This document shows, piece after piece, positions 94 to 288 of a stretch of 324 nucleotides of DNA (its first letter is position 1; each line of letters starts with the position of its first letter). The translations under genes and the position numbers were made by a program. A model generated the notes under the pieces. That model saw only the letters and a list, made by a program, of their open reading frames with translations, was not told where the DNA came from and ran no database searches. This DNA is from Escherichia coli (GTDB lineage Bacteria > Pseudomonadota > Gammaproteobacteria > Enterobacterales > Enterobacteriaceae): the NCBI RefSeq assembly GCF_003334385.1, contig NZ_QOWN01000205.1. One strand, written 5' to 3'.

Positions 94-288
94 ATGACAT
101 TTGTTCATCAGGTGATGCTGTACTTCTGTACGGCAGTCTGTGTTATGTATCTTCTTTCGGGTGGGTACAGGGCAGTGCGCGATTTCTGGCGCAGACAGAT
201 TGATAAAAGGGCCGCTGAGAAAATCAGCGCCAGTCAGTCAGCCGGAACAAAAACAGAAGCCCCACTCATTCCGGAACAACCTTCTTAA
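94..288 (+). CDS. Hypothetical small single-pass membrane protein, 64 aa
   Basis: Complete ORF running from ATG 94 to TAA 286-288, with an in-frame TAA at 85-87 immediately upstream, so ATG 94 is the first possible start. Residues 3-22 (FVHQVMLYFCTAVCVMYLLS) form an uninterrupted hydrophobic stretch of transmembrane length. It is followed by a cluster of basic residues (R26, R29, R33, R34, K38, R39), consistent with the positive-inside rule, i.e. N-terminus out and C-terminal tail cytoplasmic. The tail is hydrophilic and ends in a Pro-containing segment (APLIPEQPS). A purine-rich Shine-Dalgarno-like element lies 3-4 nt upstream. No competing ORF is present on the reverse strand. No homology search was possible. 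Confidence 0.6.
   Translation: MTFVHQVMLYFCTAVCVMYLLSGGYRAVRDFWRRQIDKRAAEKISASQSAGTKTEAPLIPEQPS
100..159 (+). other. Predicted transmembrane helix (residues 3-22 of the 64-aa ORF)
   Basis: Twenty consecutive mostly hydrophobic or aromatic residues, with no charged residue except a single His. They are bounded downstream by a GG-Y-R motif and a basic juxtamembrane stretch (RAVRDFWRRQIDKR). Judged by eye, without a prediction program. Confidence 0.55.

Follow-up and report, generated by a model that had tools for sequence, protein, structure and literature searches.

The closest described relatives of the gene analyzed here are Orf25 of phage 933W and H0119 of phage VT2-Sakai. Both belong to the DUF1378 family (PF07125, phrog_494) and are encoded between a NanS-p esterase and the genes for a DUF826 protein, holin S, and endolysin R. 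In a survey of Stx2a phages (PMC10462455), DUF1378 and DUF826 appear as unknown ORFs that separate nanS-p from S, and every mention of DUF1378 that we found in the literature is of this kind. The gene order in VT2-Sakai is pR', qut, three tRNA genes, stx2AB, nanS-p (L0105 in 933W), Orf24, and Orf25 (H0119), followed by L0106 (DUF826), S, R, and Rz.

An excess of AGA and AGG codons (with ATA and CTT) in lambdoid prophages has long been known, as has the Ile/Arg tRNA trio of Stx phages. In 933W this trio is ileZ-argN-argO, and Plunkett et al. are said to have described in 1999 that the cluster matches the codon usage of the phage. A low codon adaptation index (CAI) combined with an excess of AGA, AGG, ATA, CTT, and GGA is the textbook signature of acquired and prophage genes in E. 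coli. Control through rare arginine codons is known from the synthesis of lambda Int, which depends on argU.

The window, by which we mean the whole stretch of 324 nucleotides from E. coli that was analyzed, contains a homolog of Orf25/H0119 as its sole substantial ORF (64 codons plus TAA; GC 48.7%, GC3 47.7%). The features of the window are listed in Table 1. Nucleotide identity to the 933W and VT2-Sakai sequences is about 84% over the window, and the homologs in those phages also have AGG, AGA, and AGG at codons 26, 34, and 39. The proteins of 933W-type phages differ in length (59-60 aa versus 64 aa here, tail ...TKTEAPLIPEQPS).

Table 1. Coordinates of features in the 324-nucleotide window (position 1 is the first base of the window).
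Feature	Position	Strand	Remarks
Intergenic spacer, esterase to DUF1378	1..93	+	NanS-p-like SASA esterase ends 46 bases before the window
Upstream ORF (uORF), 14 codons (MKTVLIVNRNGKKL*)	53..97	+	Unannotated; TGA overlaps the DUF1378 ATG as ATGA
DUF1378 CDS, 64 aa	94..288	+	RefSeq WP_047660256.1, "DUF1378 family protein"; PF07125; phrog_494
CTT CTT (Leu20, Leu21)	151..156	+	Minor Leu codons (151-153, 154-156)
AGG, Arg26	169..171	+	Rare in E. coli host
CGC, Arg29	178..180	+	Common codon; sole Arg position conserved family-wide
CGC, Arg33	190..192	+	Common codon
AGA, Arg34	193..195	+	Rare in E. coli host
AGG, Arg39	208..210	+	Rare in E. coli host
GGA (Gly51)	244..246	+	Minor Gly codon
DUF826 gene, first 11 bases (ATGTCAGAAAT...)	314..324	+	L001 12314-12604; phrog_311 and phrog_8301 matches

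E. coli 2018-166 carries the window at 100% identity in its chromosome (NZ_CP075632.1, 172132-172455), as do four other complete genomes. Among 5426 complete E. coli genomes, 1002 (about one fifth) have matches to the window, at a median of two and a maximum of seven places per genome, as is characteristic of a prophage gene present in several copies. In a phage collection, 306 records matched the window at 82-97% identity; most of these are Stx1- or Stx2-converting phages.

In the source prophage locus (L001, in which window base 1 is position 12001), genes for RusA, KilA-N, DUF968, and the Q antiterminator precede, on one strand, a short divergent insert and three tRNA genes. These are followed by a 1-kb stx-free spacer, a SASA-family esterase of the NanS-p type, DUF1378, DUF826, a class II holin, lysozyme, an antirepressor, and Rz, and then by terminase, capsid, and portal genes. 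With Q upstream, and with holin, endolysin, Rz, and terminase downstream on the same strand, this is the arrangement of a lambdoid (Stx-type) late region. VT2-Sakai, PhiR5_1, phiSTEC1589, and AU5Stx1 share the same order. No stxA or stxB CDS is annotated between the tRNA/pR' region and nanS-p (L001 8985-9975); instead, this interval holds a pseudogene fragment of 141 bp and sRNA copies of the STnc100 type. By its annotated gene content, we class the prophage as lambdoid and of the Stx-phage type, without stx, and thus not as a Stx-converting phage. It differs from 933W and VT2-Sakai both in the lack of stx after the tRNA genes and in its portal gene, which is annotated as frameshifted (L001 21092-23676). 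This frameshift suggests that the prophage may be defective.

Two full copies of the STnc100 sRNA family (RF02076) were detected at L001 9061-9266 and 9544-9753 on the plus strand (141-166 bits against a gathering score of 47), together with a weaker match at 9305-9478 (+). With the tRNA cluster on one side and the esterase gene on the other, these copies occupy the slot of the stx genes of Stx phages. At L001 9236 and 9723, there are repeated terminator-like hairpins (AGCCCCTCTCCGGAGGGGCT). Another terminator-like hairpin, with a 12-bp stem and a T-rich tail, is located between the DUF826 and holin genes at L001 12614-12642 (+), 290 bases past the end of the window; without antitermination by Q, it may set esterase, DUF1378, and DUF826 apart from the lysis genes.

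The preliminary description of this DNA had singled out two AGG codons and one AGA codon among six arginine codons, and had also mentioned two CTT codons and a GGA codon. The three rare arginine codons are exactly where that description placed them, and the CTT and GGA codons are also present. The arginine total, however, was one too high: listed codon by codon, the ORF contains R26 (AGG), R29 (CGC), R33 (CGC), R34 (AGA), and R39 (AGG), so that AGA and AGG (together AGR) account for three of five arginine codons and not for three of six. The preliminary description had linked these codons to low-level or regulated expression or to recent acquisition, on the premise that AGA and AGG are rare in the host.

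To represent highly expressed genes, and as the source of the CAI weights, we used tuf, rplK, rplA, rplJ, rplL, rpoB, and rpoC of E. coli ER1709 (seven genes, 3,798 codons). The core sample comprised 59 genes, namely 21 neighboring genes of ER1709 and 38 genes of the window's own strain, rather than whole genomes. The other 28 intact CDSs of the prophage that carries the ORF served as the prophage background. None of the 240 arginine codons in the highly expressed genes is AGR. The share is 4.7% (18/385) in the 21 ER1709 core genes and 1.8% (16/883) in the 38 core genes of the same strain, which bears out the premise that AGA and AGG are rare in the host. At these rates the probability of at least three AGR codons among five is 9.5e-4 and 5.8e-5, respectively. 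The other 28 prophage CDSs have an AGR share of 20.1% (75/373), and the corresponding probability is 0.059; at this background, about 1.7 of 29 genes are expected to have at least three AGR codons among five. The excess of AGR codons in the ORF is therefore real when measured against the host and not significant when measured against its own prophage, where the P value is borderline. Since about one fifth of the arginines in the prophage region are encoded by AGA or AGG, three of five in a single gene falls within sampling noise.

The difference between prophage and host is strong. The AGR rate of the prophage is roughly 4 to 11 times that of the host core, and the comparison with the core genes of the same strain gives an odds ratio of 13.6 (Fisher test, p = 2e-27). 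ATA accounts for 17.8% of the isoleucine codons in the prophage and for 4.6-5.2% in the core; CTT accounts for 17.5% of the leucine codons in the prophage, 8.9% in the core, and 3.2% in the highly expressed genes. Only a weak difference was found for CGA (7.2% versus 4.2-6.2%). High AGR counts recur in the neighboring prophage genes, including those for Q (4/9), a 404-aa hypothetical protein (8/14), a nucleoid-associated protein (7/13), an HTH protein (6/13), YlcI (4/9), and the holin (2/5). The AGR fraction of the ORF (0.60) is the highest in the locus among genes with multiple arginines, and the next values are 0.57, 0.54, and 0.46.

The CAI of the ORF is 0.243, below that of all 59 sampled core genes (0.279-0.625 in the 21 genes from ER1709; 0.25-0.539, with a median of 0.388, in the 38 genes of the same strain). 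Neither the codon usage of the host nor this CAI speaks against the preliminary description. Among the prophage genes, which range from 0.19 to 0.43 with a median of about 0.31, the ORF ranks seventh lowest of 29. Its GC3 in this comparison is 0.476, and the values for the surrounding genes are 0.550 (esterase), 0.495 (DUF826), 0.671 (holin), and 0.580 (lysozyme). The ORF is thus atypical when compared to the host core and typical of the surrounding prophage, as is the codon usage of a horizontally acquired gene. Because its CAI and codon shares fit the prophage and not the core, the ORF carries the codon signature of acquired genes; it is a textbook case, and we found no difference that distinguishes it from that signature. 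In the plus strand ORFs of 47 distinct related late regions, AGR makes up 16-36% of the arginine codons, which makes the bias a property of such phage DNA as a class. The AGA and AGG codons very probably reflect the usual composition of lambdoid (Stx-type) phage DNA and are not specific to this gene.

The idea of recent acquisition, which the preliminary description had raised, stands insofar as the gene is foreign and belongs to a lambdoid prophage; its composition is a stable phage trait and does not mark recency. The other suggestion, low-level or regulated expression, applies only insofar as the gene occupies a late region that is antiterminated by Q; the codons themselves are unlikely to regulate it.

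The prophage carries three tRNA genes at L001 8736-8985, with the anticodons CAT (annotated as Ile; Ile2-like CAU), TCG (Arg), and TCT (Arg), on which ARAGORN and Rfam agree. This is the same trio as in VT2-Sakai and as ileZ-argN-argO of 933W, and it occupies the same place downstream of Q. A full-text search of a limited literature library for ileZ, argN, and argO returned no match. As in 933W, codons cognate to these tRNAs are enriched: ATA and AGA/AGG are several times more frequent in the prophage than in the host core (see the shares above), which is what compensation by phage tRNAs would entail. The cluster differs from what a gene-specific link would lead one to expect in that the AGR codons of the DUF1378 gene are independent of it, and about half of the related loci do not have it.

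The tRNA-Arg(UCU) gene lies 3.1 kb upstream of the ORF in the same orientation. Its proximity allows a reading in which the supply of tRNA-Arg(UCU/CCU) limits how much DUF1378 is made and, through polarity or coupling, how much DUF826 and holin; lysis-related expression would then be tuned by the phage tRNA-Arg(UCU), itself a product of this late region. Several observations are consistent with such a translational throttle: the codons read by the three prophage tRNAs are the very codons that are enriched, the three AGR sites are invariably AGR within the E. coli clade, the ORF has the top AGR fraction of its locus, and phage tRNAs are said in general terms to compensate for codon differences (PMC7946995). 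We examined the association between tRNA genes and arginine codons in related loci with at least 5.5 kb of upstream sequence. Twenty-one of these loci have a tRNA-Arg(TCT) gene, four have CAT and TCG alone, and 25 have no tRNA gene. The arginine codons of the ORF did not co-vary with an upstream tRNA-Arg(TCT) gene; the codon pattern was identical in the 21 loci with it, in the four with CAT and TCG alone, and in the 25 loci that lack any tRNA gene within 6-7 kb upstream. Regionally, the median AGR share was even higher in late regions without tRNA-Arg(TCT) than in those with it (0.245 versus 0.217; Mann-Whitney p = 0.002, 47 late regions). This is the opposite of what simple compensation predicts, although the comparison may be confounded by phage lineage. 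In addition, the ORF contains no tandem AGR-AGR (R33-R34 is CGC-AGA), and distant homologs have lysine or methionine codons or CGC at these sites. Given these results, we consider a translational throttle very unlikely. With lambda Int, the ORF shares its origin in a lambdoid phage and the possession of several AGA/AGG codons; it differs in the absence of tandem rare codons and in the conservation of AGR in a shallow clade only.

The composition of the tRNA cluster varies among related prophages (including L011, L052, L067-L070, and L009). Six loci have CAT and TCG without TCT, one has TCG and TCT without CAT, and about half have none of the three.

The history of the rare codons was traced in 85 related loci, of which 80 are IMG/VR contigs and four are phage records, the last being the source prophage; together they represent 29 distinct DNA variants. 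AGG stands at codon 26 in 28 variants (AGA in the remaining one) and at codon 34 in 22 (AGA in the other seven), and every variant has AGG at codon 39; apart from single exceptions, CGY is used at codons 29 and 33. Across the 85 loci, the encoded protein has a near-invariant core (LLSGGYRAVRDFWRRQIDKRAAEKISASQSAG). No switch from AGR to CGR was observed at codons 26, 34, or 39 in the 29 variants. About one such switch was expected, with a probability of about 0.3 of seeing none, given that just one of three comparable four-fold sites has an A-to-C allele. The conservation of AGR within this shallow E. coli clade is therefore not above the neutral expectation. AGR is nonetheless strictly kept across the clade, and weak selection is possible.

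Outside this clade, the codons are not retained. The homolog P0106 (62% identity) has AAA (Lys) at positions 26 and 34 and ATG (Met) at position 39; P0034 has AGC (Ser) at positions 26 and 39; P0116 has AAG (Lys) at position 26, AGA at R29, and CGC at R34; and P0138 and P0135 have no AGR codons at all. Codon 26 in particular encodes Lys (AAA/AAG), Ser (AGC), or other residues in divergent homologs. R29, the only arginine that is conserved across the DUF1378 family, is encoded by CGC in the window. In P0106, P0116, P0138, and P0135, rare codons were thus not found at the same sites beyond what amino acid conservation gives. The AGR sites are exchanged with close neighbors (Lys AAR, Ser AGY, Met ATG), as drift in A-rich phage DNA would produce.

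Under the compositional reading that we favor, the AGR codons were inherited from the ancestor of the family's E. coli clade. They occupy variable basic positions; relatives carry Lys (AAR), Ser (AGY), or Met (ATG) there, all of them codons that differ from AGR by one or two bases. Expression would depend chiefly on antitermination of the late transcript by Q, and the AGR codons would be read by the host argU and argW tRNAs, and by the phage tRNA-Arg(UCU) where present, without a regulatory role.

The protein itself is a member of the DUF1378 family. The match to PF07125 covers residues 1-59 and model positions 1-59 of 59 (i-E = 7.4e-35, score 119.4), and the match to phrog_494, which PHROGs assigns to the category unknown function, has an E value of 1.5e-36. 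Searches with the DUF1378 protein gave no match in NCBIfam and a chance-level match alone (E = 0.075) among PDB sequences. A hydrophobic segment at residues 3-21 (mean Kyte-Doolittle value of 1.81) is followed by a basic stretch at residues 25-43 with seven K/R and three D/E. AlphaFold2 modeled a single helix from residue 2 to residue 51 and an unstructured tail, with a mean pLDDT of 71 and values of 82-88 over residues 1-20. In an alignment of 20 DUF1378 members, M1, L9, V15, L20, and G24 are invariant, and F11, G23, R29, and K43 are conserved in at least 90%. The protein shares the architecture of the family: an N-terminal hydrophobic helix that ends in an SGGY-type motif, and then a basic helix with R29. 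DUF1378 is predicted from this model to be a small single-pass membrane protein in which a basic juxtamembrane helix and then a disordered tail follow an N-terminal hydrophobic helix. By the positive-inside rule, its N-terminus is likely outside and its C-terminus inside.

The AGR codons at positions 26, 34, and 39 follow closely on those for the hydrophobic segment (residues 3-24), a place where slow codons might form a programmed co-translational pause that aids the targeting or insertion of the N-terminal transmembrane helix. The ribosome exit tunnel holds about 30-40 residues, and while codons 26-39 are translated the hydrophobic segment would still be inside it. The whole protein has just 64 residues, so that insertion is probably post-translational. 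Distant homologs with the same architecture do not keep these codons, and we regard a programmed pause as highly improbable.

We also considered whether an overlapping element constrains the AGR codons, be it an ORF in the +3 frame, an internal Shine-Dalgarno-like AGG, or an RNA structure. A 44-aa ORF that starts with TTG spans positions 69-203 (+, frame 3), and phiSTEC1589-Stx1c annotates this frame in place of DUF1378; AGGG motifs are present at 169-172 and 208-211. Variable sites fall on the three codon positions of the DUF1378 frame in the ratio 13/13/31. This third-position excess indicates that the DUF1378 frame is genuinely coding and under selection, and it rules out the frame-3 ORF as the selected frame. 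Neither AGGG motif is followed by a start codon at a suitable distance. An Rfam search of the window returned no match, and the predicted RNA folds of positions 40-130 (z = 0.26) and 150-240 (z = -0.45) were no better than those of shuffled sequences. A constraint through an overlapping element is thus extremely improbable.

In VT2-Sakai and 933W, an "Orf24" is annotated whose stop codon is the TAA at positions 79-81 (frame 1, window 1-81, +). RefSeq annotates neither Orf24 nor the frame-3 ORF, and the variation by codon position supports the DUF1378 frame alone.

The uORF (Table 1) is found in about 80 of 87 homologous loci. The Shine-Dalgarno sequence of the DUF1378 gene is weak in the window (AACGGTAAGAAACTATG); in the divergent locus L088, the uORF is absent and a strong Shine-Dalgarno sequence (GGGAGGGATAATG) is present instead. 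The overlap of the two reading frames may allow translational coupling of the uORF to DUF1378.

DUF1378 is a very narrow family. At 90% identity it forms 114 clusters, all from Escherichia or Shigella, and at 50% identity 41 clusters among 1.84 billion representatives. In the loci that we examined, its members always adjoin phage lysis genes, and the E. coli arrangement is esterase, DUF1378, DUF826, holin, and lysozyme. This constant neighborhood suggests that DUF1378 may be an accessory membrane protein linked to lysis.

Distant homologs with 27-38% identity are encoded immediately behind an Rz-like spanin gene and ahead of terminase (L094 2-687) or immediately behind an endolysin fragment (L098 2-557); the linkage to the lysis cassette thus occurs in three gene orders. 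In L088, the start of a 132-aa DUF826 product (7110-7508) falls within the 3' end of DUF1378. Overlapped or fused forms of DUF1378 and DUF826 are represented by this locus, by L006 (7200-7574), and by phrog_8301. The N-terminus of phrog_8301 (139 positions) matches DUF1378 and its C-terminus matches DUF826; since it spans both proteins, fused DUF1378-DUF826 forms are indicated. These overlaps and fusions suggest that DUF1378 and DUF826 work together.

A further reading joins the neighborhood to the codons: DUF1378, with DUF826, would be an accessory membrane component of the lysis cassette whose AGR codons tie its synthesis to the supply of tRNA-Arg(UCU) from argU of the host or argO of the phage. 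We consider this combination very unlikely. If it were true, tRNA availability would be coupled to lysis timing or to the release of toxin or virions.

The codon pattern of the ORF is an already known phage bias, and it confirms an origin from a mobile element. The codon cue correctly flagged the gene as foreign and of phage origin, and it does not indicate regulation specific to this gene. Its value as a discovery is small; it is useful for classification, because it identifies the window as prophage DNA. The nearby biological question is the function of DUF1378 and DUF826, two very narrow families encoded beside phage lysis genes.
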